A stretch of 64,000 nt of DNA, from NCBI GenBank assembly GCA_023134705.1, contig JAGLUN010000051.1, forward strand, positions 3,362-67,361. The letters run 5' to 3'. Positions 5,428 through 61,706 of this stretch are shown here, piece after piece (position 1 is the stretch's first letter; every line of letters starts with the position of its first letter). Source of the DNA: Candidatus Omnitrophota bacterium. GTDB lineage: Bacteria > Omnitrophota > Gorgyraeia > Duberdicusellales > 4484-171. The notes under the pieces are model-generated. The model had not been told where the DNA came from and searched no databases. It was given only the letters and a program-made list of their open reading frames with translations. Position numbers and translations under genes: made by a program.

Positions 5428-5636
5428 AAGTAGATTTGCTAAGGCACCCGTGAATAATAATGAAACAACTTAGTCCGATTATATAATAGCTTTATGTGCT
5501 TGTCAATAAAACCAGCGTTTTCTATTCGCGTATCGCATATCGAGGATCTAACAGATTATTCCTCCTCTCTCGTCCTTCATCTCTATATTCTTTACGAGTA
5601 TCGAGCATCGAGGATCTAGCATCAAGGATCTAAAAG

Positions 5637-5672
5637 GTTACATAAAGTTGCATAAAGTTACATAAGGTTGCG
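5637..5672. repeat. Family-B forward arm (GGTTACATAAAGTTGCATAAAGTTACATAAGGTTGCG) on the left of the four-helix-bundle gene
   Basis: It has the same phased GTTAC units as 4641..4690. The matching reverse arm lies at 6108..6225, on the other side of the gene. Confidence 0.7.
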
Positions 5673-6128: not shown

Positions 6129-6225
6129 GTAACTTTCTTAACGTAACCCTCTCAACGTAACCTTCTCTAACTTTAAGTAACTTTCTCAATGTACCCTTCC
6201 CCATGTAACCTTATGTACCCTTCCC
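6108..6225. repeat. Family-B reverse arm (GTAACC/TAACC units) on the right of the four-helix-bundle gene
   Basis: The sequence AACCTTCCCTAACCTCAAGTAACTTTCTTAACGTAACCCTCTCAACGTAACCTTCTCTAAC is nearly identical to 7783..7830 and 53880..53960. Confidence 0.75.
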
Positions 6226-6860: not shown

Positions 6861-7623
6861 TTATCAACTCATCTATAAAATTACACACCTTCAGTTTAAT
6901 CCCATCCCATACAGAACGCGTATCATACACATTCTGATCTTCGACAGAGAGATAAGAAACCACACTATCACGAAACTGTTCAAAACTGATTTCAAGTACA
7001 TTCTGATACGCCTTTTTTAAAATATTCTTTTCAATAAGTAATGCCCGGCTCTTGTCATATTGTGAACTCAAAAGATGAAGGTCAAAAACATCTCTTGCTT
7101 GAAGAAAAGCCCTTGTAACTAATGCTTTTATCTTTTGGCTCACCATAGAATCCGCGTCATAGTGAGGAACTAAAATCGGCGGCAGCTTATAGGCCCGCAA
7201 TACAGTATCCATAACTTCTTCTACCCGTACGCCTTCTTTAAAACCTCTCCTTGAAAATTCAATTTTAATAAATAAATCCTCTCCGCTTGCGGTTATCAAA
7301 TGGACTTTAAATGGCTGGGTAGTTTGTGTTTGCTTTGCTTTTTTTATATCCGGAGGAATTATCTTTTCAATACCAAAAGGTCTAAGTGTGTCCTGAAATG
7401 ATTGGGAATTAAGGACATTCATTACCATTTCAATAAGAGTATCAACGGCTACCCTTTCTACATCCAAATCTATATCTTCTGAGTAACGAATACTGTGAAA
7501 GAAAAAGCGCAAATTTACTCCACCCTTTAAAACATAGGTATCGGGTTTGAGCTTTCTCCCAAGCCATCGTAAGAATTCTAAATGAAATACCTCTCTTACT
7601 TGTAACGGGCTGTTTATTAGCAT
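6847..7623 (-). CDS. abiEii: AbiEii/AbiGii-family nucleotidyltransferase toxin (DUF1814)
   Basis: It carries LKGGVNLRFFFHSIRYSEDIDLDVE, matching the family signature LKGGTxL...R.SEDIDL. It is 258 aa. Confidence 0.7.
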   Translation of the reverse strand: MLINSPLQVREVFHLEFLRWLGRKLKPDTYVLKGGVNLRFFFHSIRYSEDIDLDVERVAVDTLIEMVMNVLNSQSFQDTLRPFGIEKIIPPDIKKAKQTQTTQPFKVHLITASGEDLFIKIEFSRRGFKEGVRVEEVMDTVLRAYKLPPILVPHYDADSMVSQKIKALVTRAFLQARDVFDLHLLSSQYDKSRALLIEKNILKKAYQNVLEISFEQFRDSVVSYLSVEDQNVYDTRSVWDGIKLKVCNFIDELINGKT

Positions 7624-15902: not shown

Positions 15903-16754
15903 AATAAGAAATTATCAAGGCAAAAATTTACCGGAGAAAGGCTTCTCTCCGGTAAAACTACCCCTTACTTTTTGGAAGAACATGCCTGCCGTTACAAATT
16001 CATAAAGGATATTATAAAAAATAAAGTTGTACTTGATGTGGGATGTGGTGAAGGGTATGGAGCTTAGTATTTGTCTTATTATGCTCAAAAAGTTGTTGCT
16101 ATAGATTTATCCCAAGAAACTATTGTTTATGCCCGGCAAAAATACGTAAGAAATAATTTAGATTTTTTTACTATGAACTCCTGTAGATTAGGATTTGATA
16201 ATGGAACATTTGATGTTATCTGTTCGTTCGAAATGATTGAACATGTTTTAGATGCCGGGGATTATCTCAAGGAAGCACAACGAGTATTAAACCAGGAAGG
16301 TATATTTATAGTTTCGACTCCCAACAAAAACAATTATCTTTTACACGGAAAAAATGAATTTCACGTCAAAGAATATTCTCTTGATGAATTCAGAAGTGCC
16401 TTGCAAAAATACTTCTCAAAGGTCGAGTTTTTTGGGCAAATATGCGGTTCCCGTTTTAGAAAATATTATAATTATGCTTTAGCAGGAATTTTTTTGAAGT
16501 TTAAAATCTTAACCTATATGCAAAATTTTCTTTCTTCATTTGCTAAACCTAAAGTTATCACGTTAGATGAGGTAAAACCCGTTATTTTCAGTTTTCAAAG
16601 CATGAAGTGTGGAAAGCTGATTTTTTTATCGCAAAATGCAAGAAGGAAGCCCGCTAAAAACGAACTTCCTTCTTTAGTTTTTAAATTTAAGCGATGTCTA
16701 TCTAACTTAAGCTTTAAGCTTAGATTTTCTTGCTTTTCCTTCTTTTTCCCATAA
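15903..16754 (+). pseudogene. Class I SAM-dependent methyltransferase interrupted by an in-frame TAG (16065..16067) and lacking a canonical start codon
   Basis: In one frame it reads QKFTGERLLSGKTTPYFLEEHACRYKFI...VVLDVGCGEGYGA*YLSYYAQKVVAIDLS...FDVICSFEMIEHV. Motif I is intact but followed by a stop. There is no ATG/GTG/TTG between the upstream TAA at 15900 and motif I. Confidence 0.5.
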
Positions 16755-17667
16755 AAGCAAATCCAAAGAGACCGAATCCCAGAAGAATAAGAGTACACGG
16801 TTCAGGTGTTCCGTATGCCCGTATAGGATCGGAACTTGTGACTTGCCATCCGTTGCTACCAGTTGATAAATCATGGTGGAGCCATATATCCGCAATAGCA
16901 TTGAGGGGACCTATTGTAAATTGACCTGGTACAAATGCACCTTGTCCACTTCCACCTAGTATTTCCAGATAACCATCACCATATCCTGTGTTAACTATGT
17001 TTGGGGTTGCCGGATAGACATTTATTGAACATTTGTAAACTATTTCCGGGGTACCATCGTGATCAAGATCAAGATATGGCACAAATCTTGAGGTTAACCA
17101 GAGGTTATTTGGTGCATCATCAATACCAGGGTAAGAATCATGTGATATCCCTTCTACCCATGCTCCTGGACCAGCTTGAGGTGCATTACCAGCGAGAGTA
17201 TTCCAGTCTGCACTCGTATCCTGCCATAGATCTGCTCGACCTGTATACCCTTGGGTTGTATACCTATTTCCTGCTTCGTAGTAAAATACTTGGGTCACGC
17301 TCCCATCAATTTCCGGAGTCCATGTTTGCGCGGCTAAAACGATATCATACATCATGAATCCAAATTCATCTGTTAAACTAGGGGTCCATACTGGAGATAG
17401 TCCGCTAGTTGACCATCCTGGTGGACCGTCAGCATGCCATACACTCTCAATGTTTCCCACACTTCGATCTTCATCTCCTATTACAAGAGGAGCACCAATA
17501 CCAACCGGAGACCACTCCTGCTCAGTATCATTCCAACGGAAATTTCCACTTGCATCTGTCATATGGAGAGCTATCGGCCCTTGAGGAATAATAATCGCTT
17601 CTGCCTTGGGAACTGCCCAGCATAAACTTATGGCGATTGCCATTACGATTAAACCTATTTTCTTCAT
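16720..17667 (-). CDS. Secreted PEP-CTERM-anchored protein (exosortase substrate)
   Basis: It starts at MKKIG with the RBS GGAGGTG and a signal peptide. Its C-terminus GTPEPCTLILLGFGLFGFAFMGKRRKSKKI has the PEP motif, a transmembrane helix and a basic tail. Confidence 0.8.
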   Translation of the reverse strand: MKKIGLIVMAIAISLCWAVPKAEAIIIPQGPIALHMTDASGNFRWNDTEQEWSPVGIGAPLVIGDEDRSVGNIESVWHADGPPGWSTSGLSPVWTPSLTDEFGFMMYDIVLAAQTWTPEIDGSVTQVFYYEAGNRYTTQGYTGRADLWQDTSADWNTLAGNAPQAGPGAWVEGISHDSYPGIDDAPNNLWLTSRFVPYLDLDHDGTPEIVYKCSINVYPATPNIVNTGYGDGYLEILGGSGQGAFVPGQFTIGPLNAIADIWLHHDLSTGSNGWQVTSSDPIRAYGTPEPCTLILLGFGLFGFAFMGKRRKSKKI

Positions 17668-17821
17668 CTTTCTTTCACCTCCTTCTTTTTTAGATTTTTT
17701 GTGACTTGAATTGTCACTCTTTGTGAATAAATTTTTACGTCCCATTTTACTTCTCCCTCCTTTCTTCTTTTGTGTTTTGTTTTTTCATTATTTGTTATTT
17801 TCCTGCTATTCGCTTTAGTTT

Positions 17822-17839
17822 AAGCAAGAGGCGTGCCAG
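17822..17839 (-). promoter_or_regulatory. Sigma-54 promoter (-24 TGGCAC / -12 TTGCT) for the PEP-CTERM gene
   Basis: The minus strand reads CTGGCACGCCTCTTGCTT, a perfect TGGCAC-N5-TTGC. Confidence 0.6.
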
Positions 17840-18035
17840 ATAGGGGTTTTTGTTAGTATTTTTTTATACACGCAGATTTTTTCGTATCGCGTATCGAGTA
17901 TCGCGTATTGCGTAAAGAAAGTCGATAGTTAATAGCTGATAGTGGGAAAAGTAAGGCGTTAAATAGTTTTACGAGTTAGCGAGTTGAACGAGTTTAACGA
18001 GTTTTAATGAAAAGGATAGAGGTTTTTTATGAAAA

Positions 18036-18140
18036 ATTGTAAAGTTTTTCGAATGTGTAAAGGAAAGCGACAGATTTCGTGGAAATATGCTTTGTGAAAT
18101 GTACTTCCTGAAATACATGGAAATATAGTTGAAATAAATT
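18036..18140 (-). promoter_or_regulatory. Upstream activator-like region with direct repeats of the TGAAATA/GGAAATA type; candidate enhancer for the sigma-54 activator
   Basis: It reads GGAAATATGCTTTGTGAAATGTACTTCCTGAAATACATGGAAATATAGTTGAAATAAAT. The same block is present at 19413..19630, 20690..20740 and 58040..58125. Confidence 0.45.
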
Positions 18141-18192
18141 GTCTGCCATAGGCTCTTCCAAAGGCAGATCCTCCTCATTATGGTGGGAAAAT

Positions 18193-18208
18193 CACGGGCA
18201 TGCCCGTG
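18193..18208. promoter_or_regulatory. Perfect 16-bp palindrome CACGGGCATGCCCGTG
   Basis: It is read directly. An identical copy lies at 19654..19669, at the same relative position in the next intergenic module. Confidence 0.5.
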
Positions 18209-18296
18209 GGGTGTTCCATTAACTTAATTCCCCCTTCTCCCTCGCGCCTATTTCTAAATTGGGATTTGTTTGTGAAGTATGAAGTGTAGAACACAA

Positions 18297-18336
18297 ACAA
18301 AAAGACAGAAGCTTTTATGCTTCTGTCTTTTTTATC
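18297..18336 (-). terminator. Intrinsic terminator hairpin (GACAGAAGC / GCTTCTGTC stem, flanking T/A runs) after the PEP-CTERM gene 18379..19134
   Basis: A 9-bp perfect stem with a 6-nt loop is flanked by T6 on the plus strand and by TTTTTGTTTGT on the minus-strand transcript. Confidence 0.6.
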
Positions 18337-18340
18337 TATT

Positions 18341-18395
18341 CTTCACGCGATACGCAACATGCGATATGCGATACGCATTTACGCGATACGTTTTC
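18341..18395. repeat. Family-A CGCGATACG array overlapping the last codons of the PEP-CTERM gene
   Basis: It reads CACGCGATACGCAACATGCGATATGCGATACGCATTTACGCGATACG. Confidence 0.7.
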
Positions 18396-19134
18396 TCCGC
18401 CTGAATCCCGCACCAGCTAATCCTATAAGCCCGGATCCAAGAAGAAGTATGGTTGCCGGTTCGGGGATAGGAGCTGTGTCGGCATCGTGGGAATATGGAG
18501 CGAAAACATCCTTCGACGTCCCGTTATCTTTATAGTAGGTGCCTGTAAGGTCAAAATGGATAAAAGAAAATATGGGGTTATAACTTATATCGTAAACCTG
18601 AATCTGTCCTAAGTCTTGTCCGTCACTTTCTGCAGGATTCCCCGGATTATAAGACAGGTCATAATTGTAAACAGTTGTCATTACGGCAAGAGGTGTAAAT
18701 AAAAAATCGTCGAGCTCCATAGAGGCATAATAAGTGAGATATATTCCATGAGGAGAAGTCCCTTCAGGTTGTCCGAAAGTTTCAAAATCATCTTTAAAGA
18801 GCTTTATGCCACCAATAGTGATAATCGGTGTTGTCTCTTCTTCAGTTGTCTCTTCTTCATAGGAAAGGTATTGATTTTCAAGGAGTGATATATGAAGTTT
18901 GACCTCGGTTATCTCAGTAAGAGTCCCATTTTTAGAGGCGCCCACGGCCCAGAGTTCAAAAGGATTATCGGTAGTAATCCATGTGTCTTCGCTTTTATCG
19001 GGAAACCAAGGGCTAACTTCATAATAAGTAGAATTAGGAATATAGAGTTGCAGTGCAGAAACAGCAAAAGCCGGAGTTGTAATGCCAAATACTAAAAATA
19101 GAAGCATTAAACCTTTCAACATACTTTTTTTCAT
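18379..19134 (-). CDS. Secreted PEP-CTERM-anchored protein
   Basis: It has the signal peptide MKKSMLKGLMLLFLVFGITTPAFA. Its C-terminus is IPEPATILLLGSGLIGLAGAGFRRRKRIA. Confidence 0.8.
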   Translation of the reverse strand: MKKSMLKGLMLLFLVFGITTPAFAVSALQLYIPNSTYYEVSPWFPDKSEDTWITTDNPFELWAVGASKNGTLTEITEVKLHISLLENQYLSYEEETTEEETTPIITIGGIKLFKDDFETFGQPEGTSPHGIYLTYYASMELDDFLFTPLAVMTTVYNYDLSYNPGNPAESDGQDLGQIQVYDISYNPIFSFIHFDLTGTYYKDNGTSKDVFAPYSHDADTAPIPEPATILLLGSGLIGLAGAGFRRRKRIA

Positions 19135-19192: not shown

Positions 19193-19210
19193 AAGCAAAA
19201 AATGTGCCAA
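19193..19210 (-). promoter_or_regulatory. Sigma-54 promoter (TGGCAC-N5-TTGCT) about 60 bp upstream of the PEP-CTERM start
   Basis: The minus strand reads TTGGCACATTTTTTGCTTAC. Confidence 0.6.
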
Positions 19211-19756
19211 AAGGGGAATTTTGGGGGATGTTTTTTATAAACGATGCTTGATCCTCGATGCTGGATGCTAGATACTAGTAAAGAATAGAGATAAAAGTGA
19301 GATGATAAGGACGAGGGATGAGAAAAGCAAAAATTAGACTCAAGACTTAAGACTCAATAGAGAAAGTCATAAGGTCATAAAGCCAAAAGTTGCCGAAATT
19401 TGGGGGAAAATTGTAAAACTTTTCGAATGTGTAAAGGAAACCGACATGTTTCGGGGAAATATGCTTTGTGAAATGTACTTCCTGAAATACATGGAAATAT
19501 AGTTGAAATGAATAGAGATATATAGAAATATATAGTCCGCCAAGGCGGATCCGCCTCCGGCGGAAAATATATTGAAATATGGTTGAAATAAATTGTCTGC
19601 TATAGGCTTTTCCAAACAAAGGCAGATTCTTCTCGTATGTATGGCGGGAAGATCACGGGCATGCCCGTGGGATGTTCCATTAACTTAATTCCCCTCTCCC
19701 TCGCGCCTATTTTTAAATTGGGATTTTGTTTGTGAAGTATGTAGTGTGTGACATAA

Positions 19757-19795
19757 ACAAAAAGGCAGGAGCTTTTATGCTTCTGCCTTTTTTAT
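19757..19795 (-). terminator. Intrinsic terminator hairpin (AGGCAGGAGC / GCTTCTGCCT) after the PEP-CTERM gene 19857..20567
   Basis: It is a near-perfect stem with a following T-run. It is homologous to the hairpin at 18297..18336. Confidence 0.55.
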
Positions 19796-19856
19796 CTATT
19801 CTTCACGCATTAAGCGATGACCGAAGGGAATCCTGAGTATCCCCGACGGATACGCG

Positions 19857-20567
19857 TTACGAGGTATGTTTTTTTTGCCTGAATCCCGCGCCAATCAATC
19901 CCAAAAGCCCGGATCCAAGAAGAAGAATGGTTGCGGGTTCGGGGATGGGCGGAGTGCCTCTATATTCCAATCGAAAGGGAGTGTCTATATCAGCATGCCA
20001 GTTCCAACGATTATTACGTTCGTCTAGGTGATAGAATCCATCTCCGGTAGCAACCTTTGGTAAACGAAAGTCCGTATCGTCTGTTGTTGTGGCGGCATTT
20101 GAACCATTTAATCCGTAAAAACTAAGCCAATACTCACCGGAAGGAAGACCTAATGGAGTTGGGAGTGTGAATTCAATATCGTAAATTTTGTCAATAGTGG
20201 AAAAAGGGGCTATAGAACTTTGTAAAGCAGTGTAGTCACCAGGTATGAGTATTTGTTCATAAAAAGGAGAGGAAGTATCTGGCTTTCCAGAGCTAGAGTC
20301 GTTGTTAAAAATTGAAAATGTAAATTTTTCGAGTGAATAGTTTATAGTTATGCCTTCTTGAAACCAAACGGTATCTATTGTTGAATCCTGAGGAAGTGTG
20401 AAATCGTCGTAAATGCGCCACTTAGAAGGTGTAAAAGCTTCAGATGAGCGAAGACCTCCAGCAGATGTTCCGATGCCATTATCATAAATAATAATTGCGT
20501 CAGCCGTGCATGTGGAAATTATAATTACAAACATAGTTATAAAGAATATTAATATTCTTTTTCCCAT
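19857..20567 (-). CDS. Secreted PEP-CTERM-anchored protein
   Basis: It has a signal peptide. Its C-terminus is PIPEPATILLLGSGLLGLIGAGFRQKKHTS. Confidence 0.8.
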   Translation of the reverse strand: MGKRILIFFITMFVIIISTCTADAIIIYDNGIGTSAGGLRSSEAFTPSKWRIYDDFTLPQDSTIDTVWFQEGITINYSLEKFTFSIFNNDSSSGKPDTSSPFYEQILIPGDYTALQSSIAPFSTIDKIYDIEFTLPTPLGLPSGEYWLSFYGLNGSNAATTTDDTDFRLPKVATGDGFYHLDERNNRWNWHADIDTPFRLEYRGTPPIPEPATILLLGSGLLGLIGAGFRQKKHTS

Positions 20568-20624
20568 TCTGATGCCTCCTTTTTTAAATCTTCATCTAAA
20601 AATATACATTTTCCACTTTGTAAC

Positions 20625-20642
20625 AAGCAAAAAATGTGCCAA
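20625..20642 (-). promoter_or_regulatory. Sigma-54 promoter (TGGCAC-N5-TTGCT)
   Basis: The minus strand reads TTGGCACATTTTTTGCTTGTT. The spacing to the ATG is the same as for the promoter at 19193..19210. Confidence 0.6.
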
Positions 20643-20741
20643 ATGAGGATGGATAGACGCAAATTATGAGATACGGTGAGATTGATAGCAATAATATAGT
20701 GGAAATATATAGAAATAGGTTGAAATATAGTTGAAATACAA

Positions 20742-20868
20742 GGTTACTTAAGGTTAGGGAAGGTTACGTAGGAAAGTTACATTGAGAAGGTTGCTTAAAG
20801 AAGGTTACTTCACGTCAACGTAACCTTAAGTAACTTTAAGTAACTTTATGTAACCTTATTTTAATTAA
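20742..20868. repeat. Family-B palindromic element in the opposite orientation
   Basis: It reads AAGGTTACTTAAGGTTAGGGAAGGTTACGTAGG...CACGTCAACGTAACCTTAAGTAACTTTAAGTAACTTTATGTAACC. Confidence 0.75.
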
Positions 20869-20931
20869 CTTCTGCAATCTTTTTTATCTATTTTTCCCGC
20901 GATACACAATACGCGATACGCGTTACGTTTT

Positions 20932-22296
20932 TCATCCAATTCCGTATTTCTTCATCAAATCATACAGGGTGGGGCGGGTGACTCCGAGCATCTTCGCGGC
21001 CAGGCTTACATTCTCTTTGCTTTCATCTAAGGCTTTTTTGATAAGCTGAATTTCCATATTCTCGCGGGCTTCTTTTAAAGAAAGTTTCCCTGAATTTGAA
21101 TCTTCTCTATCGCCTCCGCCAAAGCCAAGCTCTGAAGAAATAATAAAAGAATTCTCTGCCAGGATAAAAGCTCTACGGACTCTATTTTCCATTTCTCTTA
21201 CATTACCCGGCCAGCTATAACTGTTCATTAAATCTTTACATTCTTTAGTAAAGCCCTTTATGGATTTGACCGGAGATTCTTCGCGATACTTATTAAGGAA
21301 ATAAGCAGCTAAAAGCAGTACATCTTCTCCTCTTTCCCGCAAAGGGGGGATTTGAAAGTTTATAACACTTAGCCGGTAATATAGATCTTCTCTGAACAGG
21401 CCTTGTTTAATCTTTTTCTTTAAATCGCTGTTAGTCGCGGCAATGATTCTTAGATTGAGCTCTATCGGATTATTCCCTCCAACGCGTTCTATAACATGTT
21501 CCTGGAGAAATCTTAAAATTTTCACCTGTAATCCAAGACTCATCTCACCGATTTCATCTAAGAAAACCGTGCCGGTATCAGCTATTTCCAATTTCCCAAT
21601 CCTTTTTATATGAGCATCGGTAAACGCGCCTTTTTCGTGGCCGAATAGTTCACTTTCTAAAAGATTCTCGGGAATCGCTCCGCAGTTTATTACCACAAAA
21701 GGGTGTTTTCCTCTTGGACTTAGGTAATGGATTGCTTTTGCCACTAATTCTTTTCCTGTGCCGCTTTCTCCGGTAATTAAAACCGCGGCATCGGTAGGCG
21801 CTACTCTTCTTATCAATTTAAAAACTTCTTTTATCGCCGGAGAACTGCCTATCATATCTTCAAATTTAAACTTATTCTGTAATTGTTCGGATAAACGCCG
21901 GTTTTCTTCCTCTAATTCCCGCAAGTATACGGCTCTTTTTAATATCACTTTTAATTCTTCGATTTTTACCGGCTTTGAATAATAATCAAACGCTCCTTTG
22001 TTTATAGATTCCAAGGCAATATCTTTTGTGTCATTTCCGGTTATCATAATTACTTTAATAAAAGGGTCATTATTTTTAATTTCCTCTAAAATTTCTATCC
22101 CTTCTTTCCGGTTTTTATTTAACGGGTCTAAATTAATGTCTAAAGCCGCTAGTTCAAATTTTTGTTCTCTAATTACTTTCAAGGCTTCCGGTTTATTTGA
22201 AGCAGTCAGGACTCCATAATCTCCTTCTAAAGCCCATTTTAGCTGTTTAAGGATACCTTCATCGTCGTCGACGATCAAAATTTTAGTTTTTGCCAT
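20932..22296 (-). CDS. prsR: Sigma-54-dependent response regulator (NtrC family; PEP-CTERM-box regulator PrsR type)
   Basis: It has a receiver domain (ILIVDDDEG ... D54-like), an AAA+ domain (GESGTGKE Walker A, and GAFTDA, a variant of GAFTGA) and a C-terminal Fis-type HTH. It lies downstream of prsK and next to sigma-54-promoted PEP-CTERM genes. Confidence 0.8.
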
Positions 22297-22476: not shown

Positions 22477-24495
22477 TCACACTTGGGGCAATCTCACTTT
22501 AAACACTGTCCCCTCTCCCTCAACGCTTTCCGCCTCAATCTCCCCTCCATGTGCCTCGATAATAGTCTTGCATTGATAAAGGCCTACACCCATTCCCTTT
22601 TCTTTGGTGGAGCTAAAGGCTTTAAAAAGTTCATTCTCAATGAAATCTTTGGACATGCCGGTGCCGGTATCTTTAAATCGAATCTCGGCGAAGTTCCTCC
22701 CCGATTTACTGTCAATTCCCGGTTGTCCGGTATAAATCCCGGTGGAAATTATAAGATTTCCTTCGCCAGGCATGGCTTCCAGGGCGTTTATTAAAAGATT
22801 AAGAATGACTTTATTCATATAACGGCGGTCAACACATATTTCTATTGATTCCTCCACGTCTATAGTAAGCCGCGTATTCTTAAATCTGTCTTTTCCTAAG
22901 TCCCTTAAGGCTTCATTAATCAAATATGACAATTTATGTTTTTCCTTATTTATTGCTAAGTCTCCGCGCAATGTTTTAAATTCATTAATTAAACGTTTCA
23001 TTTTCCCGATAGCGTTTTCCAGCGTAAAAAAAGCGTCTTCCCGGAATTCAGGATTATTGAATTTATCTTTATTAGAAACAAGGAGTGAAAGGCTGTTAAC
23101 ATAATTCTTAACGTCATGGATAACGAATGAGGATAGTTTATAAATTGATTCTTTTTTCTCGGCTTCCCGTAATTTTTGATAAGCCCAGCAGTTTAAAATA
23201 ACGCTGGACGCCTGCAGTGATAAAACCTTAAGAAGTTCTTTGTCCAAGAAGTTGTTATCATTTAAAGACATCCCGATCAATCCGATAATTTCCTTATCTC
23301 CATATAAAGGCATTGCCGCTTCAATCTTGTTTTCTTTAAAAAAAACTTTTGCTTTGGGAAATTTGTTTTTATCCGGAGAAGAACTGTTAAAAGTTTCGTT
23401 AAAGTTAAAGGCTTCTCCCTGCCTTAGAAGCCGGTCACAAAATCCTTCTTCAAAAGGTGTCTCTTTTTCAAAGACAAAAACCCGGACAGCGGAAACATTC
23501 ATAATTTTTGAAATCGCGTCCTGGATGTTTTTCTTTATTTTTTCGACATCAGTAACGAGAGAAATTTTATAAGTAAAATCTTCCCAGATTTTTTGCCAAT
23601 CATATTTTTGGCGGGTTAAATACCTTAATAGGAATGTTCTTAACCGCTCCCGGAAAGATAATGAGAAGATAAGAAATAGTAAAGCGAAAAATATAAAAAG
23701 CGCGGTTAGAAAAGAAAACAGAACATTCAGATTCCAGCCAAAAGTCTGGAACAGTTTGATGAACGCGCCGATGAAAAATAGATAGCCTCCGACAAGGAAA
23801 AGAGTCAAAGAGGCATGAATTACGGTTTTTTCTTTTACTGCTTCGATAGAAAAACCTTTTTGAGAGGCAAAAAGAAAAATCAATCCGCCGGCAAAGACGC
23901 TTATTGACGAATAAGTTAAAACTCCAATATGTATCTCAAAAAATAATACCGCGTAGGTAGCCAGAACAACATACGGAGTAAGTAAAAATAAAGCGCTTGT
24001 AAAAAGCAATCCCAGCCTCTTTTGTCTTAAAAAGTATAAGCTTCTTTCTATATTGGAAATTGAAAAACTCAAATCAAAAATAAGAAAAATAAAAAAATAT
24101 TGCGCTAATTGAGGGAGTGTCGGGAATAAGTCATTCCCCGGTAAAATTATAAAAGGCTTTATCCACCAGAGCAGGAAAAACATCAAGGAAATAAGTCCTA
24201 AAACCGGGGTTAAAATCAGCCGGTTAAAAACATACCGTTTAGAGGGTAGCAATGATACGCTGAAAATAAGCCAAAATAAGGATATAAGGCAAAATCCCAG
24301 GCCGAATATCTTATCCGCGAAAGGGACCTCAAAAAAGAAGGAAAACTTGGCGATTTCCAAAACTACAAGGCTTAAAATACAAAATGCCGCCAGAAGATTG
24401 GTAATGCTCTTGCGCTTGAAAAGATTAAAGGTAGAAAACCCCAGCATAAAGATATTTACAATCGCAATTATTGATAAAATTGTTTGATCAAACAT
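22477..24495 (-). CDS. prsK: Multi-pass membrane sensor histidine kinase (PrsK-like PEP-CTERM-system kinase)
   Basis: It has about 10 N-terminal transmembrane helices, a GAF-like segment, an H-box VIHDVKN and an HATPase domain (GTGMSKDF, GMGVGL). It is 672 aa. Confidence 0.7.
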   Translation of the reverse strand: MFDQTILSIIAIVNIFMLGFSTFNLFKRKSITNLLAAFCILSLVVLEIAKFSFFFEVPFADKIFGLGFCLISLFWLIFSVSLLPSKRYVFNRLILTPVLGLISLMFFLLWWIKPFIILPGNDLFPTLPQLAQYFFIFLIFDLSFSISNIERSLYFLRQKRLGLLFTSALFLLTPYVVLATYAVLFFEIHIGVLTYSSISVFAGGLIFLFASQKGFSIEAVKEKTVIHASLTLFLVGGYLFFIGAFIKLFQTFGWNLNVLFSFLTALFIFFALLFLIFSLSFRERLRTFLLRYLTRQKYDWQKIWEDFTYKISLVTDVEKIKKNIQDAISKIMNVSAVRVFVFEKETPFEEGFCDRLLRQGEAFNFNETFNSSSPDKNKFPKAKVFFKENKIEAAMPLYGDKEIIGLIGMSLNDNNFLDKELLKVLSLQASSVILNCWAYQKLREAEKKESIYKLSSFVIHDVKNYVNSLSLLVSNKDKFNNPEFREDAFFTLENAIGKMKRLINEFKTLRGDLAINKEKHKLSYLINEALRDLGKDRFKNTRLTIDVEESIEICVDRRYMNKVILNLLINALEAMPGEGNLIISTGIYTGQPGIDSKSGRNFAEIRFKDTGTGMSKDFIENELFKAFSSTKEKGMGVGLYQCKTIIEAHGGEIEAESVEGEGTVFKVRLPQV

Positions 24496-47347: not shown

Positions 47348-48448
47348 TTATGACTTTGCGCCCTTGCGACTTTCTCTATTGAGTCTTATGTCTTCTGTTT
47401 TCTGTACTTTGTCCTTCACAACCTGCATTCCTTCCTGCAATCGTTGCCCATACATCTTTTTATAGTAATTAAGGTACTCCCCTGACTTAATTTTCATCCA
47501 CCAGCCTTTATTCTGCCTATACCACTCAATTGTTTTTTCTATGCCTTCTTCGAACTTGTATTTAAGCTGCCAGCCTAATTCATTCTTAATTTTAGTTATA
47601 TCCATAGCATACCGTCTATCATGGCCAAGCCTATCTTTTACATAAGTAATTAAGGATTTAGGTTTATTCAAATGTTTTAATATTATTTTTGCTATATTTA
47701 TATTAGTTTCCTCTGAATTTCCTCCGGCATTATAGACTTCTCCTATCCTGCCTTTATGCAAAACAACATCTATTGCCCGGCAAAAATCTTCGGTATAAAT
47801 CCAGTCTCTAACGTTTAAACCGTCTCCGTATAATGGAATGGGTTGATTATCTAAAACATTTGAAATAGTTAAGGGGATATATTTCTCCGGGAATTGATAA
47901 GGCCCGTAGTTATTTGTGCAGCGGACAATTGTTGCCGGAAATTTGAATGTTTCCACATAAGACCGGACTAACAAATCTGAACTTGCTTTTGATGCTGAAT
48001 AAGGACTATTTGGTTGTATTGGCGTTAACTCAGTAAATACCCCTGTCGGACCAAGAGAACCATATACTTCATCAGTCGAAATATGGATAAATTTCTCAAT
48101 ATTGTTTTCTTTTGCCGCTTCTAATAAAACATGAGTGCCAACGATATTTGTTTTTATAAAAGGAATGGAATCTGTAATAGACCGGTCAACGTGTGATTCA
48201 GCGGCAAAATGAACTATAAATGAAATTCCTTCTTCTTTTATTAGATTACTTACCAATTTTCTATCCTCAATCCTTCCCTTAATAAATTTATAATTTGGAT
48301 TACCTTCTATGCTTTTTAAATTTTCTAAGTTACCGGCGTAAGTCAATGCATCTAAATTAATTATCTTATAATCATAATTGTTAAGCATATAATGAATGAA
48401 ATTCGAGCCTATAAATCCACAGCCACCGGTTATTAATATATTTTTCAT
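47348..48448 (-). CDS. rfbB: dTDP-glucose 4,6-dehydratase
   Basis: It carries ILITGGCGFIGSNF and YSASKASSD. It has the full-length RfbB architecture. Confidence 0.85.
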   Translation of the reverse strand: MKNILITGGCGFIGSNFIHYMLNNYDYKIINLDALTYAGNLENLKSIEGNPNYKFIKGRIEDRKLVSNLIKEEGISFIVHFAAESHVDRSITDSIPFIKTNIVGTHVLLEAAKENNIEKFIHISTDEVYGSLGPTGVFTELTPIQPNSPYSASKASSDLLVRSYVETFKFPATIVRCTNNYGPYQFPEKYIPLTISNVLDNQPIPLYGDGLNVRDWIYTEDFCRAIDVVLHKGRIGEVYNAGGNSEETNINIAKIILKHLNKPKSLITYVKDRLGHDRRYAMDITKIKNELGWQLKYKFEEGIEKTIEWYRQNKGWWMKIKSGEYLNYYKKMYGQRLQEGMQVVKDKVQKTEDIRLNRESRKGAKS

Positions 48449-48452
48449 AGTA

Positions 48453-48500
48453 TATTTGATTACACAGATTATTGCTAGATTACACAGATTTCTGTTCGAT
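48453..48500. repeat. Array of GATTACACAGAT-type units (left flank of the GxxExxY gene)
   Basis: It reads GATTACACAGATTATTGCTAGATTACACAGATTTCTGTTCGATTGCTCAGATT. Confidence 0.7.
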
Positions 48501-48508
48501 TGCTCAGA

Positions 48509-48889
48509 TTAAAGAACAAACCTTTTAACTCCACAACTTTTATTGCCGAAATTAACTAATAATCCGACTTTCAAATTAGATGCTCTTAAATAAGAAAGTA
48601 TCTGGTATTTAAAAACATCGGGAATATTGCCTGTTAAGGCTTTAACTTCAACTATAACTTTATCTTCTATGATTAAGTCTAATCTAAGTCTGCCAACATT
48701 CTCTCCTTGATACGAAATCGTAAAACTTTTCTCAGTCTGATACCTTAAGCCTTCCTGTTTTAAAGCTATCTCTAAGGCATTATGGTATATACGCTCATTA
48801 AATCCCGGCCCTAATTCAGAATGAACCCTATAACAACAACCTATTATTTTTTCTGTAAGTGAATCATTATCTTTCATCTGTGTAATCAT
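48509..48889 (-). CDS. GxxExxY-family protein (PD-(D/E)xK-like small selfish/insert gene)
   Basis: It carries LGPGFNERIYHNAL (G..E..Y) and the family end ...GVKRFVL. It is 126 aa. Confidence 0.65.
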   Translation of the reverse strand: MITQMKDNDSLTEKIIGCCYRVHSELGPGFNERIYHNALEIALKQEGLRYQTEKSFTISYQGENVGRLRLDLIIEDKVIVEVKALTGNIPDVFKYQILSYLRASNLKVGLLVNFGNKSCGVKRFVL

Positions 48890-48965
48890 TTTTCATAATC
48901 TGCGTAATCATTTATTATAATCTGTGCCATCATTTTTTATTATCTGTGTAATCTTCCTTTTAATC
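48890..48965. repeat. Array of ATCTGTGTAATC-type units (right flank, inverted relative to the left flank)
   Basis: It reads ATAATCTGCGTAATCATTTATTATAATCTGTGCCATCATTTTTTATTATCTGTGTAATCTTCCTTTTAATCTGTGTAATCA. Confidence 0.7.
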
Positions 48966-49850
48966 TGTGTAATCATTTATTCTAATAAATTTATCGGTAG
49001 ATTCCTCCCATTTTGGGATAGCGATATCTAATGTTTTTTTGATTTTTAAATTCGACATAGCGGAAAACATCGGCCTCTTTGCTTTTGTTTTAAAAGTATC
49101 TATTGAAACGGGAACAATTATATTTTCAGTACCCATTCTATTAATAAAATATCTGGCTAATTCATGTCTTGAAGCATAGCCGGTATTAGTTAGATGGAAT
49201 AAGCCCGTTATGCCTTTTTCTAAACTTAATAATGTAACATTTACAATATTTTCTGTATATGTAGGAACTGAGACTTCATCAGATGTTATTTTAAGCACTT
49301 TAGATTTTTCAGCCCACTGTCTTAACTTGTATAAAAAGTTTTGTTTCCCCTTTCCGATAACCCAACTTAATCTGAATATCAAAAAATCAGATAAACACTC
49401 TTTGATTGCCTGTTCTCCCTCTAATTTGCTTTTACCATATACATTAAGAGGATTTGTCATGTCTTCTTCTACATATAAATCCTGTTTTTGTCCATCAAAC
49501 ACATAGTCTGAACTATAGTGGACTAAAAATATTTTATTTTCTTTACAGATTCTTGCTAAATTCTCGACAGCCTGACTATTTACTAAATGTGCTAATTTTG
49601 AATTTTCTTCGGCTTCATCAACTAGATTATATGCGGCGCAATTAATAATGACATTGGGTTTAGCTTCATTTATTATTGTTCTTGTCTTTGTGAAATCAGT
49701 AATATCCCATTCTTCTTCCGATGGAGCAGCAAAATCAATTTTTCTTTCATGGAAAATTTTCTGAAATTCTTTACTTAATTGCCCTGAAGCGCCTGAAATT
49801 AAAAATTTATTATTCTTCATCGTAAATAAAGCTTTTTTTAATGTTATCAA
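48960..49850 (-). CDS. rfbD: dTDP-4-dehydrorhamnose reductase
   Basis: It has a Rossmann N-terminus (LISGASGQL), is 296 aa and lies in the rfb gene order. Confidence 0.8.
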   Translation of the reverse strand: MITLKKALFTMKNNKFLISGASGQLSKEFQKIFHERKIDFAAPSEEEWDITDFTKTRTIINEAKPNVIINCAAYNLVDEAEENSKLAHLVNSQAVENLARICKENKIFLVHYSSDYVFDGQKQDLYVEEDMTNPLNVYGKSKLEGEQAIKECLSDFLIFRLSWVIGKGKQNFLYKLRQWAEKSKVLKITSDEVSVPTYTENIVNVTLLSLEKGITGLFHLTNTGYASRHELARYFINRMGTENIIVPVSIDTFKTKAKRPMFSAMSNLKIKKTLDIAIPKWEESTDKFIRINDYTD

Positions 49851-57678: not shown

Positions 57679-57999
57679 TCATCCTTTGTTTTTTTTCTTT
57701 CTTTTCAACGCGGAAAGGACTAATCCTCCTAATCCGATTCCAAAAAGGGTTAAAGTTGCCGGTTCAGGATTAAGACCAACAAAATCATTGCCACTGCCCG
57801 AATTACTAGTGCCGCCTAAATCATCTGTATAGCCTGGATCATTTGAGTAATCAAGATCAACAAAATCACCGCCGCTGCCCGAATTATTTGAGTAATCGGC
57901 ACCGGAAAAAGAAACCGAATCAGAATCGCTGCCCCCTCCTCCGCTTTTACAGCCAATAAAGCAAACTGCTACTGTCAAAATCAGTATAAATCTTAACAT
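57679..57999 (-). CDS. Small low-complexity PEP-CTERM lipoprotein (Gly/Ser/Asp-rich)
   Basis: It has the RBS GGAGGTGATCC. The signal peptide carries the lipobox FIGC. Internal repeats are SGSGGDFVDLDYSN and SGSGNDFVGLN. The C-terminus is NPEPATLTLFGIGLGGLVLSALKRKKKNKG. Confidence 0.65.
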   Translation of the reverse strand: MLRFILILTVAVCFIGCKSGGGGSDSDSVSFSGADYSNNSGSGGDFVDLDYSNDPGYTDDLGGTSNSGSGNDFVGLNPEPATLTLFGIGLGGLVLSALKRKKKNKG

Positions 58000-58039
58000 T
58001 ATGGATCACCTCCTTTTGAATAGTCTATGGTCGATATTC

Positions 58040-58140
58040 ATTGAAATATGCTTCGCGAAATATACTTCGTGAAATATACTTCATGAAATATATAGATATA
58101 GATAGAAATAAATGGAAATATGTTGAAATAAATAGTCCGC
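58040..58140 (-). promoter_or_regulatory. GAAATAT direct-repeat block (14-bp period) upstream of the small PEP-CTERM gene, homologous to the blocks at 18036 and 19413
   Basis: It reads CGCGAAATATACTTCGTGAAATATACTTCATGAAATATATAG...GGAAATATGTTGAAATAAATAGTCCGCCATTGGCGG. Confidence 0.45.
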
Positions 58141-58179
58141 CATTGGCGGAAAATATAATTGGAATACATCTTTATTGCT

Positions 58180-58578
58180 TTAATCTTCATTTTTGGCCTT
58201 AGTTTTTGATTTGTATGTTGAACTTATAAAGTTATTTAATTTGATTGATAATTTCTTGCTCAATTTTTCCATTTTGTTAAAAATATCTTTATCGATAATC
58301 TTTCGTTCATGGAGTAAAGATAACCAATGTTCACACGATTCACTTAAAGACGCACGGCTGGTATAATAGAACTTAATCCTATCTAAGAAGTGATATCTTT
58401 TATACCCTTCAGCAATGTTTGCCCCTACAGAATCGATAGATTCAATAAATTGATCTCCCATAATCTTCTTTTCATGCCAATTCAATGCGCTATAGATTTC
58501 CCATGCAATTCCTGATAATTCTCTGGATATCCTGTAAACCTCTAAATCCTTCAGTTCTATATATTTCTTTATATCCAT
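58180..58578 (-). CDS. Four-helix-bundle protein (23S IVS-associated family), second copy
   Basis: It carries SVGANIAEGYKRYH and YYTSRASLSESCEHW. It is 132 aa. Confidence 0.65.
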   Translation of the reverse strand: MDIKKYIELKDLEVYRISRELSGIAWEIYSALNWHEKKIMGDQFIESIDSVGANIAEGYKRYHFLDRIKFYYTSRASLSESCEHWLSLLHERKIIDKDIFNKMEKLSKKLSIKLNNFISSTYKSKTKAKNED

Positions 58579-58603
58579 TCTATATCTATATATTGATATA
58601 TCT

Positions 58604-59581
58604 CTACCCTTTCACCAGTTGGCTTTTAAAATATTCGACTGTTCTCCTAAGGCCTTGTTCAAAATCAACTATGGGTTTGAAGCCAAGCATTGACTTGATT
58701 TTAGAAACATCGGCTAAGGTTTTGAATACGTCTCCTTTGCGTACAGGTAAAAATTCCGGTTGGATATTTTTGCCGATGATTTTATTGAGTGAGTCAACTA
58801 TGCTTAATACAGTGTTGTCTTTTCCGTTGGCAACGTTAAGAATCGTATTGCGTATCGCGTATTGCGTATCGCGTAAAGGGACGGTGGCGGCAAGGATGTT
58901 GGCTTCAACTACGTTATCAATATAAGTAAAATCACGGGATTGTTTGCCATTACCAAAAATCGGCGGTTGTTCATTATTAAGAATGCAATGGATAAATTTA
59001 GGGATAACTACAGCGTATTCGTCGTCTAATGCCTGCCTTGGGCCGAACACGTTAAAGTAACGCAGGCTTACTGTTTCCAGGCCGAAGTTCTCGCTGAAAA
59101 TCCGGCAGTAATATTCACCGGCTAATTTAGTCAAAGCGTAAGGAGAAATAAGTAACGGATAGGCGGTTTCCTTCTCAGGGAATTTGTCGGTATCTCCATA
59201 AACAGAACTTGATGACGCAAAGACCAAACGTTTCGTCCCGCACTCTCCACCGGCTTTAAGCATATTTAAAGTGCCATTAATATTTACCTCGTTATATTCA
59301 TAAGGGTTATTCATTGATTTAGGTACACTGCGTAAGGCGGCCTGGTGGAATATAATTTCGATACCTTTACAGGCTCTTAGACAAGTATCATAGTCACAGA
59401 TATCGCCTCTGATTAGTCGATAGTCGATGGCCGATTGTCCATAGCTGGATACAAAAGAGAGGTTCTCTTCTTTTCCGGAAGAGAAGTTATCAAGTACAAC
59501 CACGTCATTTCCTTCCTTCAGTAATCGTTCAACAATATGTGAACCGATAAATCCTGCTCCGCCGGTTACCAATGCTTTCAT
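58604..59581 (-). CDS. NAD-dependent UDP-sugar 4-epimerase (GalE/WbpP-like extended SDR)
   Basis: It carries ALVTGGAGFIGSH and YALTKLAGE and is 325 aa. The codons 58849..58880 are a family-A repeat unit (see findings). Confidence 0.75.
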   Translation of the reverse strand: MKALVTGGAGFIGSHIVERLLKEGNDVVVLDNFSSGKEENLSFVSSYGQSAIDYRLIRGDICDYDTCLRACKGIEIIFHQAALRSVPKSMNNPYEYNEVNINGTLNMLKAGGECGTKRLVFASSSSVYGDTDKFPEKETAYPLLISPYALTKLAGEYYCRIFSENFGLETVSLRYFNVFGPRQALDDEYAVVIPKFIHCILNNEQPPIFGNGKQSRDFTYIDNVVEANILAATVPLRDTQYAIRNTILNVANGKDNTVLSIVDSLNKIIGKNIQPEFLPVRKGDVFKTLADVSKIKSMLGFKPIVDFEQGLRRTVEYFKSQLVKG

Positions 59582-59832
59582 TGTTTTCTCCTTATTTAAT
59601 AGATATTGTCAAAATTATTTAAGTTTAAATAACCAATCACCAAGATATACCCTTACGGGCACAGGCAAGATACAAACAAATTCCAATCTTCAATAATCAA
59701 TAACCAAAATACCTGATTTTGTTGAATTTTTTGGTTATTGAAATTTGGTCATTGGTTATTGTTTGGTTATTGTTTCTTGTGTCTTGGTTATTCATTCCTT
59801 CTGTGCCCTCTGTGGTTTTTTCATAACTTATC

Positions 59833-60567: not shown

Positions 60568-60590
60568 AAGTTTCGTATCCTCCGGGAATA

Positions 60591-60800
60591 CTCAGGATTC
60601 CCTTCGGTCATTTCGTATTGCGTATCGCGTATCGCGTATTGCGTTATAAATTCCTTTTACTAACTTTATACCTTTTTTCCAAACTCTTAAATCTCTAAAA
60701 TATTTTATTTTGTCTTCCATTTTGTCATATTTGTGTTTTGTACGCGATACGCGATACTCGTTACGCGATACGCTATTATTGCTTTCATAAATTTCGTATT
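60591..60800. repeat. Family-A arrays in inverted orientation bracketing a 5' fragment (about 60650..60740) of a four-helix-bundle gene
   Basis: 60611..60645 reads CGTATTGCGTATCGCGTATCGCGTATTGCG. 60745..60790 reads GTACGCGATACGCGATACTCGTTACGCGATACG. 60650..60740 is about 90 percent identical to 61092..61180. Confidence 0.75.
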
Positions 60801-60803
60801 GCG

Positions 60804-61163
60804 TTATAATTTTTTTGCTAAATTAGTAATCATTCTACAAATATGGTCGATTATTTCTGTTAATTCGTTTTCTTTGTCTTCTTTTATGTAAGACAATTCT
60901 TTTGTAATTATCACCTGGGTTTCTAATTCCGCGCAGGAACCTAAAGATATATTGAGAAATTGTTTGTATTCTTTGTTATGTTTTCGTCTAAAACCCTCTG
61001 CTATGTTAGAAGGGATAGAAATGGCACATCTTCTCATTTGAGAAGAAAGTCCATATTGTTCTTCTTTAGGGAAACTTTTCGTTGTTTTATAAATTTCTTT
61101 TACTAGCTCTATACCTTTTTTCCAAACTCTTAAATCTCTAAAACGTCTTATTTTGTCTTCCAT
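60804..61163 (-). CDS. Four-helix-bundle protein (23S IVS-associated family), third copy
   Basis: It carries RRCAISIPSNIAEGFRRKH and NISLGSCAELETQ. It is 119 aa. Confidence 0.7.
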   Translation of the reverse strand: MEDKIRRFRDLRVWKKGIELVKEIYKTTKSFPKEEQYGLSSQMRRCAISIPSNIAEGFRRKHNKEYKQFLNISLGSCAELETQVIITKELSYIKEDKENELTEIIDHICRMITNLAKKL

Positions 61164-61214
61164 ATTGTCATATTTGTTTGTACGCGATACGCAATACGCG
61201 TTACGCGATACGAA

Positions 61215-61706
61215 TCACGCGATACGCGTTACAATATTTTTAAAGAATATAATTGCTCCCACAATTACCGCGTTTATTGAGGCTAAGAGGACCCCGGCAG
61301 CGGCAATGTCTTTAACCAGTTTAACCGAAGGATGATATTTCTTGCCGTTTAAAAAGTCTAAGCTTAACTCTAAAGCCGTGTTAATAATTTCACAAGCAAT
61401 AACAAAGATCATGGCTAAAAACAAAATTGCCATTTCTAAATAAGAAACCTTAATCAAAAGACTTAAGACAATGACCGATAATCCCGTAATAATATGTATA
61501 CGGATGTTCCTTTGGCTTTTTAAAGCGAATTTAAGCCCTTCCCAGGCACAAACAAAGCTGCTCAATAAATTTCTTCGTTTATTAAAAATATTTAAGGGAT
61601 AATTGTTAACCTCTAATGAAGAAGCATTAGCGGTTAAGGGATTAGGTCCGGAATGATTATTTTTTACAACTTCATCCATCCCTTGACCAAGATTAATCTC
61701 CGGCAT
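61215..61706 (-). CDS. dgkA: Diacylglycerol/undecaprenol kinase (DgkA family)
   Basis: It carries EIINTALELSLDF and VKDIAAAGVLLASINAVIVG, and has three transmembrane helices. The start is assigned at the internal Met to avoid the upstream overlap. The ORF could extend to 61772. Confidence 0.55.
   Translation of the reverse strand: MPEINLGQGMDEVVKNNHSGPNPLTANASSLEVNNYPLNIFNKRRNLLSSFVCAWEGLKFALKSQRNIRIHIITGLSVIVLSLLIKVSYLEMAILFLAMIFVIACEIINTALELSLDFLNGKKYHPSVKLVKDIAAAGVLLASINAVIVGAIIFFKNIVTRIA

Follow-up and report, generated by a model that had tools for sequence, protein, structure and literature searches.

GAAATAT repeats upstream of the fourth PEP-CTERM gene in an Omnitrophota exopolysaccharide locus: a possible mosaic of intergenic repeat modules

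The DNA analyzed here (the window) is a 64,000-nt stretch of a Candidatus Omnitrophota MAG. It contains an exopolysaccharide/PEP-CTERM locus on the minus strand. We added 3.5 kb of sequence beyond its left end and 7 kb beyond its right end, for about 75 kb altogether. The window encodes PrsR (20932-22296; TIGR02915, 558 bits) and a PrsK-like kinase (22477-24495; TIGR02916, 248 bits, below the 300-bit cutoff). It also encodes many glycosyltransferases and sugar-nucleotide enzymes. It contains exactly four PEP-CTERM genes, which are numbered here as genes 1 (16720-17745), 2 (18379-19134), 3 (19857-20567), and 4 (57679-57999). No rRNA was found in an Rfam-type scan of the whole window.

Gene 4 is an open reading frame on the minus strand. 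It encodes a small Gly/Ser/Asp-rich PEP-CTERM protein of 106 amino acids (TIGR02595, 20.5 bits against a cutoff of 16). The N-terminus ends in FIGC, which was read by eye as a candidate lipobox. The Shine-Dalgarno region, AAAAGGAGGTGATCC, was read directly at 58003-58017 on the minus strand. A four-helix-bundle gene (58180-58578, minus strand) encodes a 132-amino-acid member of the 23S rRNA intervening-sequence protein family (TIGR02436, 69.7 bits against a cutoff of 24; PF05635 in the gene calls). The cassette that carries it lies between an epimerase gene and gene 4. The genes from a 61-amino-acid regulator and a Wza homolog down to gene 4 are all co-directional. This string starts with a sigma-54 promoter, CTGGCACGGAAAATGC (right flank, L128:2712), about 10 kb upstream of gene 4. 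In a synteny comparison for gene 4 by way of ManC homologs, the closest relative (71%) has unrelated neighboring genes and so gives no information.

The exact pattern TGGCAC-N5-TTGC occurs only three times in the window, once each for genes 1, 2, and 3. The sigma-54 -24/-12 element of gene 1 is at 17824-17838 on the minus strand, and those of the other two genes are at 19195-19209 and 20627-20641. A position weight matrix was built from six promoters, these three and three from relatives. It scored the window sites at 27.5 to 30.4 bits. The pattern with up to two mismatches had no match on the minus strand of 58000-59700. The matrix reached at best -5.8 bits on the minus strand of 57990-58180 and -0.5 bits up to 59700. 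The initial annotation had found no TGGCAC-N5-TTGC before gene 4, and both scans agree with it as far as 59700. It had also offered a degenerate -24/-12 promoter as one option for this gene. The relaxed matrix scan of 57990-59700 excludes that option.

Genes 1 and 2 have a second upstream feature. In Proteobacteria, a 17-nt motif ending in TTTACA, sometimes repeated, has been described about 63 nt (32 to 92 nt) upstream of the PEP-CTERM sigma-54 motif (Haft 2006; PMC1569441). Two PrsR-type boxes, TGTCGCTTTCCTTTACA and TCGAAAAACTTTACA, are at 18036-18072 on the minus strand, directly promoter-side of a repeat array (c1, below). An equivalent pair is at 19410-19446. Exact TTTACA-N12-TTTACA occurs in the window only at 18038-18061 and 19412-19435. 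We compared the prsR neighborhoods of three Omnitrophota, about 10 kb on each side, whose PrsR proteins are 68 to 72% identical. In all three, the first PEP-CTERM gene after prsR has a TGGCAC-N5-TTGC element preceded by two TGTCG-N6-TTTACA-type boxes. The boxes of one relative (L123) have the same TTTACA-N12-TTTACA spacing as those in the window.

A box matrix made from the relatives only ranked 19428-19446 and 18054-18072 first and third among 128,000 window positions. Upstream of the other two genes it gave no site (1.8 bits for gene 3 and, on the minus strand of 58000-58180, -1.0 bits for gene 4). With a matrix made from all ten sites, the best score on the minus strand of 58000-58180 was -2.8 bits. 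For comparison, genes 1 and 2 score 14 to 25 bits with these matrices. TGT-N11-ACA was absent from the region 58000-58180 upstream of gene 4. A cluster scan found no GAAAT clusters in the relatives' loci (L120 to L123), and Tandem Repeats Finder (TRF) found only unrelated heptamer arrays there. The TGTCG-N6-TTTACA box, which is usually paired, is a candidate enhancer of the sigma-54 activator because it is conserved with sigma-54 promoters in relatives whose loci have no GAAAT arrays. This box is now found in Omnitrophota as well as in Proteobacteria.

The window has the gene class and locus type of the PEP-CTERM regulatory region of Haft 2006. It shares with it PrsR, a PrsK-like kinase, three sigma-54 promoters, and paired TTTACA boxes at two genes. 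The GAAATAT block at gene 4 is also upstream of a PEP-CTERM gene, as is motif 1 of that study, but it has no TTTACA box and no -24/-12 element after it. The block is also missing from the PEP-CTERM upstream regions of relatives that keep motifs 1 and 2.

The repeat block before gene 4 contains GAAATAT at 58043, 58057, 58071, and 58085, which is an exact 14-nt spacing. Another copy starts at 58115. The first part of the block, part A (58042-58092, plus strand), contains 3.6 copies of the 14-nt unit TGAAATATACTTCG (TRF period 14, 89% matches). Repeats of GAAATAT with a 14-bp period had been reported here in the initial annotation, and the exact spacing confirms them. Each copy of the unit contains the near-palindrome ATACTTC-NN-GAAATAT. 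The end of part A is 43 nt from the gene 4 ATG. As minus-strand RNA, part A has a predicted fold of -16 kcal/mol (z -4.6).

TRF also found 5.1 copies of GAAATA units with a period of 10 at 58085-58135. The second part, part B (58105-58135, plus strand), has this 10-nt period and reads GAAATAAATG GAAATATGTT GAAATAAATAG. This part falls within the cassette and, read on the minus strand, forms the T-rich tail 3' of a hairpin. The hairpin is TCCGCC-AAT-GGCGGA, followed by CTATTTATTT, and was found by a terminator scan at 58136-58150 on the minus strand (-9.6 kcal/mol, z -3.0). The sequence TAGTCCGCCATTGGCGGA was found at 58133-58150. The hairpin at gene 4 is a single unit, and a doubled form is at 19536-19565 and at about 1697-1726 of the left flank (L124). 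On the minus strand, the order is the four-helix-bundle stop (58180), the hairpin (58150-58136), the tail CTATTTATTTC, and two more ATTTC units of part B. These are followed by TATCTATATCTATATATT, 3.5 of the 14-nt units of part A, a 25-nt spacer, the Shine-Dalgarno sequence, and the gene 4 ATG.

The combination of TCCGCCAATGGCGGA and CTATTTATTT passes the scan for intrinsic terminators, with a GC-rich stem-loop and then a U-tract. Its tail is interrupted, so its efficiency is uncertain. The hairpin and tail were flagged as terminator-like at both 58150-58136 and 19549-19536. The hairpin at 58136-58150 is predicted to be terminator-like for the four-helix-bundle/epimerase transcript, but weak, with a stem of only 6 bp.

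The four-helix-bundle gene is enclosed by an inverted repeat. The left arm, AATATATAGATATAGA (58087-58102), is a perfect 16-nt complement of the right arm, TCTATATCTATATATT (58579-58594). The right arm occupies most of the 25-nt gap from the epimerase stop to the four-helix-bundle start. None of 2,000 shuffles of the flanks reached 16 nt. The predicted minimum-energy structure of the minus-strand RNA joins 58556-58594 to 58087-58125, with the gene and the hairpin between them. The same architecture was found around four-helix-bundle genes at 60804-61163, where the arms carry CGTATCG arrays, and at 5658-6128, where they carry AAGGTTAC arrays. It was also found around a PD-(D/E)XK gene (48509-48889) and around the four-helix-bundle genes of the relatives L122 and L123. 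The cassette arms were inverted arrays of short tandem repeats in each case examined. The CGTATCG and AAGGTTAC array families also occur gene-free, in PEP-CTERM upstream regions.

Judged from the sequence, 58087-58150 (the arm, the 10-nt units, and the hairpin) belongs to the four-helix-bundle cassette. The inverted repeat of the cassette excludes the 14-nt-period units of part A (58043-58086). The initial annotation had raised the chance that the whole repeat block was simply part of the four-helix-bundle insert. This holds for 58087-58150 and fails for 58043-58086, which is outside the cassette and recurs at genes 1 and 2. The cassette resembles the 23S rRNA intervening sequences with an S23p/four-helix-bundle open reading frame, such as that of Coxiella burnetii (PMC4990558). 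It has the same TIGR02436-family frame of about 400 nt, inverted repeats, and a predicted loop-out stem. Unlike the rRNA elements, which sit in a 23S rRNA helix, it lies between protein-coding genes of a polysaccharide operon, and its arms are short tandem repeats. RNase III excision is putative for this cassette.

Copies of the block are present elsewhere in the locus. A BLAST search against the window matched 58057-58142 to 19456-19542 with 82% identity over 87 nt (E 2.5e-18). This region is upstream of gene 2, and the homology proposed for it in the initial annotation is sound. Weaker matches of the gene 4 block were at 18076-18153 and 20693-20738. Part A has homologs at 18076-18126, 19450-19500, and 5038-5086 of a Cognataquiflexum nitidum contig (L095), with nhmmer E values of 1e-11 to 1e-15. 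The part B profile matched 18118-18143, 19492-19515, 19572-19597, and 20720-20744 in the window. Outside the window, it matched 1664-1689 of the left flank (L124) and 4856-4880 and 4978-5001 of the C. nitidum contig. Clusters of at least four GAAAT[AG] motifs occurred four times in the window, all on the plus strand, and every PEP-CTERM gene has one of them upstream. The mean in dinucleotide shuffles was 0.005 clusters per window.

Array c1 (18082-18137, plus strand) is upstream of gene 1. It contains parts A and B contiguously and has no CCGCC hairpin. Array c2 (19456-19597, plus strand) is upstream of gene 2. Alignment of the two intergenic regions showed that it is c1 with an insertion of about 80 nt. 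The insertion (about 19510-19590) contains the doubled hairpin TCCGCCAAGGCGGA TCCGCCTCCGGCGGA with a part B copy on each side. The arrays at genes 1 and 2 adjoin the boxes, on the flank away from the promoter. Part A copies are present at both genes, with no four-helix-bundle gene nearby. Array c3 (20702-20740, plus strand) contains four units with a period of 10 to 11 nt. About 60 nt separate it from the gene 3 sigma-54 promoter, which lies downstream. Because gene 3 has this sigma-54 promoter but no PrsR box, the array (about -60 to -100) is its only candidate upstream site.

A fifth array was found 3.5 kb to the left of the window (L124, 1640-1770). It is nearly identical to the c2 insertion. 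It occupies an intergenic region from which a sigma-54-driven sugar-transferase gene and an acyl-ligase/acyltransferase operon diverge. It is upstream of a gene that is not a PEP-CTERM gene and has the same orientation as this downstream gene. All five arrays in the 75 kb are therefore upstream of and co-oriented with exopolysaccharide-locus genes, and all four PEP-CTERM genes have one. The chance of this placement is about 0.001 to 0.04 by hand estimates, depending on the assumed independence of the copies. The chance of the gene 4 coincidence alone is about 0.02 to 0.04 by a length-weighted hand estimate in which c1 to c3 may be linked. This last estimate uses our own count of about 26 intergenic regions of at least 100 nt. 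The co-oriented placement hints at selection for a role in cis. As RNA, c3 folds at 0 kcal/mol and c1 has a z score of -0.85. An RNA structure common to all arrays was rejected, as c1 and c3 fold no better than shuffles.

The block belongs with known kinds of intergenic repeats. The STRR sequences of cyanobacteria are intergenic heptamer tandem repeats. The TAACTGA repeats of Beggiatoaceae, Cyanobacteria, and Bacteroidetes (PMC4679880) are of the same form. The block shares with both families short tandem noncoding units, occurrence at several loci, sharing across phyla without a known transfer mechanism, and a frequent position just upstream of genes. Its units are short and head to tail, they are noncoding, they occur at five loci, and there is a Bacteroidota copy. 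It differs from these families in that the unit is either 14 nt (two 7-nt halves, near-palindromic) or 10 to 11 nt, is tied to a GC hairpin, and apparently belongs to one locus. The hairpin resembles REP/BIME palindromic units and intrinsic terminators. It has the same GC-rich 6-bp stem, is single or doubled, is intergenic, and has a T-rich tract and a copy in the operon of another organism. Unlike REP/BIME units, it is always flanked by GAAATA units.

Rather than an activator site, the block at 58042-58150 may be a mosaic assembled from intergenic repeat modules. We give this reading about an even chance. The segment at about 58087-58150 would be the downstream edge of a small cassette. It would consist of the inverted-repeat arm, the GC hairpin, and a coding-strand T-rich tail of ATTTC units. 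In the minus-strand transcript, base pairing of the two arms may leave the four-helix-bundle gene in a loop, as in the 23S rRNA intervening sequences. The hairpin and its tail may serve as a leaky intrinsic terminator and insulator. The units at 58043-58086 would be a further copy of the AT-rich GAAAT short-tandem-repeat module, which appears to have been copied among the noncoding regions of the locus. Several observations weigh against this reading. They are the co-oriented placement of the arrays, the arrangement at gene 3, the position of part A outside the inverted repeat, the short stem and interrupted tail (CTATTTATTT) of the terminator, and the weakness of the sigma-70-like hexamers described below.

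Gene 4 is probably expressed by read-through or from a weak sigma-70-like promoter, because it lacks both a PrsR box and a nearby sigma-54 promoter. Read-through would come from the co-directional string of sugar-nucleotide and export genes. It is plausible because the hairpin and interrupted T-tail are weak (-9.6 kcal/mol). A sigma-70-like promoter may lie in the 14-nt units. Direct reading of part A gave the hexamers TTCACG-17-CATATT, which are a weak match (4/6 each) in a phylum whose promoters are uncharacterized. Gene 4 should be left out of any list of direct PrsR/sigma-54 targets.

The initial annotation had taken the repeats for a candidate enhancer shared among the PEP-CTERM genes. 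The arrays would then be bound by the sigma-54 activator PrsR at all four genes, and gene 4 would respond to this activator through another type of promoter or a degenerate one. In favor of this reading, each of the three sigma-54 promoters in the window has an array, which directly adjoins the boxes in the case of genes 1 and 2. At gene 3 there is an array and no box, and the window encodes no regulator besides PrsR. However, the conserved and independently derived PrsR-type site is the TGTCG-N6-TTTACA box. Relatives keep this box in loci without arrays, and gene 4 lacks it. No sigma-54 element was found over 1.7 kb upstream of gene 4, and we know of no sigma-54 activator that acts on other holoenzymes. 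Direct repeats of 10 to 14 bp also differ from the dyad sites of NtrC-family Fis-type domains. We consider a PrsR enhancer highly improbable.

The arrays could instead be operator or architectural sites of a DNA-binding or DNA-bending protein other than PrsR. It would act through head-to-tail repeats or through A-tract curvature phased at 10 to 11 bp. Such a protein would co-regulate the PEP-CTERM and exopolysaccharide genes, including gene 4. Candidates are the 61-amino-acid stand-alone MerR/BldC-like protein or a nucleoid-associated protein. This reading is possible and, in our judgment, rather unlikely. It fits the placement of all five arrays upstream of and co-oriented with a locus gene, and such clusters are absent from shuffles. 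The arrays are alike in primary sequence and not in structure, which fits a role at the DNA level. The 10- to 11-bp period of part B fits protein binding or intrinsic curvature, and the gene 3 array is at the position expected for an upstream site. The gene for the 61-amino-acid protein heads the sigma-54-driven export operon, behind CTGGCACGGAAAATGC and about 10 kb upstream of gene 4. The best NCBIfam match of the protein is HTH_BldC (E 1.3e-6). BldC itself forms head-to-tail multimers on AT-rich direct repeats, the number of which varies (PMC5859096). The locus shares with BldC-family operators a variable number of directional AT-rich direct repeats, and it contains a small stand-alone MerR-like winged-helix gene. 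However, the BldC match is 28 bits, far under the family cutoff of 77, and BldC sites are contiguous 9-bp AATTNNNN(C) units, whereas the period here is 10 to 14 nt. The same small regulator is present in the relatives (64% identical, apparently on the prsR contigs), yet their prsR-flanking loci (about 10 kb on each side) have no arrays. The promoter of the regulator itself has no array, and homologous modules occur in non-promoter contexts of other organisms. Another alternative is a function of the arrays as RNA. On the coding strand, the AUUUC repeats are G-poor and largely unstructured, with regularly spaced UC dinucleotides, and come after a hairpin. Rho loading or RNA processing at these repeats could shield the tightly regulated PEP-CTERM genes from transcription that starts upstream, and gene 4 may gain a 5' leader hairpin after an RNase III cut of the cassette stem. 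The strand bias is complete and a hairpin precedes every array. Array c3 is predicted to be unstructured, and at gene 4 there are the part A hairpin (z -4.6) and the predicted cassette stem. The minus strand has no G in the first 55 nt of the gene 4 array (c4) or in the 50-nt c3 array, but G-poverty is an automatic consequence of the repeat unit and not independent evidence. The arrays of genes 1 to 3 are upstream of promoters and after strong terminators, so they would be transcribed only through read-through. Rfam matched nothing at gathering thresholds in the whole window or in the C. nitidum contig. With E values up to 1, it gave only weak terminator-type matches near 18264-18375 and 19655-19905. 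We regard an RNA-level element as quite unlikely.

The mosaic reading carries a caution for annotation of PEP-CTERM regulons. A conspicuous repeat that is shared beside sigma-54 promoters would not be the activator site, and the box is the real candidate. In Omnitrophota, noncoding regions may be made up of repeat modules that recombine and of small cassettes similar to rRNA intervening sequences.

We searched for the modules in other organisms. The pattern GAAATRT-N7-GAAATRT-N7-GAAATA was found in at least 118 stretches of genome contigs. Almost all of these, from many phyla, were simple tandem arrays with 7- or 14-nt units. Among the matches listed for this pattern, only that of C. nitidum was homologous. 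A strict part A pattern had no match in metagenome contigs or viral contigs. The part B pattern had seven matches in viral contigs, all within coding sequence without arrays, and these were taken as chance. Among plasmids, BLAST with the c1 block matched nothing but a terminator over 40 nt. The doubled hairpin with one GGAAATAAATAG unit was found between rpe and tkt on an unrelated JGI metagenome contig (L126, 4522-4552). Its orientation is opposite to that of the downstream gene.

The four-helix-bundle cassettes, the TCCGCC hairpin units, and the GAAAT modules could belong to a single intergenic repeat system that is horizontally mobile. This system would move between phyla (Omnitrophota, Bacteroidota, and others) and insert into operons and into long regulatory regions. 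There the pieces would be reused as terminators, insulators, or operator arrays. Such reuse would provide a PrsR-independent upstream module for all PEP-CTERM genes of the locus. We consider this unlikely. The sharing of modules across phyla is the most intriguing loose end. C. nitidum is a Bacteroidota isolate, and its near-identical modules would be a tractable case of a short intergenic repeat spreading between phyla if they reflect transfer and not convergence. Parts A and B lie there between convergent genes that are genuine Cyclobacteriaceae genes. Part A is 89 to 94% identical over 35 to 48 nt, and the two part B copies are inverted relative to it.

The sigma-54 promoters of Omnitrophota PEP-CTERM genes are preceded by TGTCG-N6-TTTACA boxes, mostly in pairs. 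This is the type of box proposed as an enhancer for the sigma-54 activator PrsR, and the TTTACA motif was described for Proteobacteria only (Haft 2006, PMC1569441). In the window, the boxes were found on the minus strand at 18036-18072 and 19410-19446, and a third site resembling them lies at 17909-17927. The loci of three Omnitrophota relatives contain them at L120 11448-11556, L122 11383-11491, and L123 14831-14877.

The upstream regions of the first two PEP-CTERM genes (genes 1 and 2; window 17950-18345 and 19400-19800) share a block of ~330 nt with ~93% identity. Its borders are sharp, with a bidirectional terminator at one end and the second TTTACA box at the other. It contains a perfect 16-nt palindrome, CACGGGCATGCCCGTG (18193-18208 and 19654-19669). 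The third PEP-CTERM gene (gene 3) also has a perfect sigma-54 promoter, and no PrsR-type box was found in its upstream region (20568-20931). The only upstream features there are a GAAAT array and a long hairpin (20740-20860) built from AAGGTTAC and GTAACCTT arrays. A short repeated module, GGGAATACTCAGGATTCCCTTCGGTCAT, occurs in two intergenic regions (60583-60612 and ~19810-19840).

A fifth GAAAT/hairpin array was retrieved from the DNA left of the window (L124 1640-1770), ~1.7 kb from window position 1. A gene encoding an AMP-ligase/acyl-carrier/acyltransferase protein lies ~140 nt downstream, and the DNA separating the two contains a strong sigma-70-like promoter (TTGTAA-16-TATAAT). On the other side of the array is a Bac_transf gene with the sigma-54 element TGGCATAAAAAATGC upstream (L124 1210-1224, minus strand).

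The 14-nt and 10-nt GAAAT modules were also present in a Bacteroidota isolate, Cognataquiflexum nitidum (NZ_JAKZAM010000037.1, L095 4850-5180), with 89-94% identity over 35-48 nt. They lie between convergent genes and adjoin AAGGTTA and GAAAATTG repeats, both of which are also present in the window. A JGI metagenome contig (Ga0182027_10000631, L126 4522-4570) contains the doubled hairpin TCCGCCGGAGGCGGATCCGCCTTTGGCGGA with a GGAAATAAATAG unit between rpe and tkt. This element, hairpin plus unit, extends into what looks like the end of rpe.

Each of the small four-helix-bundle and PD-(D/E)XK genes examined lies between arrays of short tandem repeats in inverted orientation. These cassettes were found in the window (60614-61237, 5624-6222, and 48438-48994) and in relatives (L122 9526-9984 and L123 9497-9963). 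They resemble 23S rRNA intervening sequences but, unlike them, sit amid protein-coding genes of operons. A four-helix-bundle cassette separates two toxin-antitoxin pairs, of the HepT/MNT and AbiEii/AbiEi types (4802-5427 and 6225-7623), which break into the polysaccharide locus.

The Wza/Wzz/ATPase/tyrosine-kinase export genes are headed by a gene for a 61-aa stand-alone MerR/BldC-like winged-helix protein. It is the first gene after a sigma-54 promoter in the DNA right of the window (L128 2712-2975, or ~68.2-68.5 kb in window coordinates). Homologues of 59-72 aa are frequent in Omnitrophota. A pair of genes, one for a PilZ protein and one for a FeeM-like protein (N-acyl amino acid synthase), is duplicated in tandem (window 1131-2410 and 3058-4300), and the second PilZ copy appears degraded.
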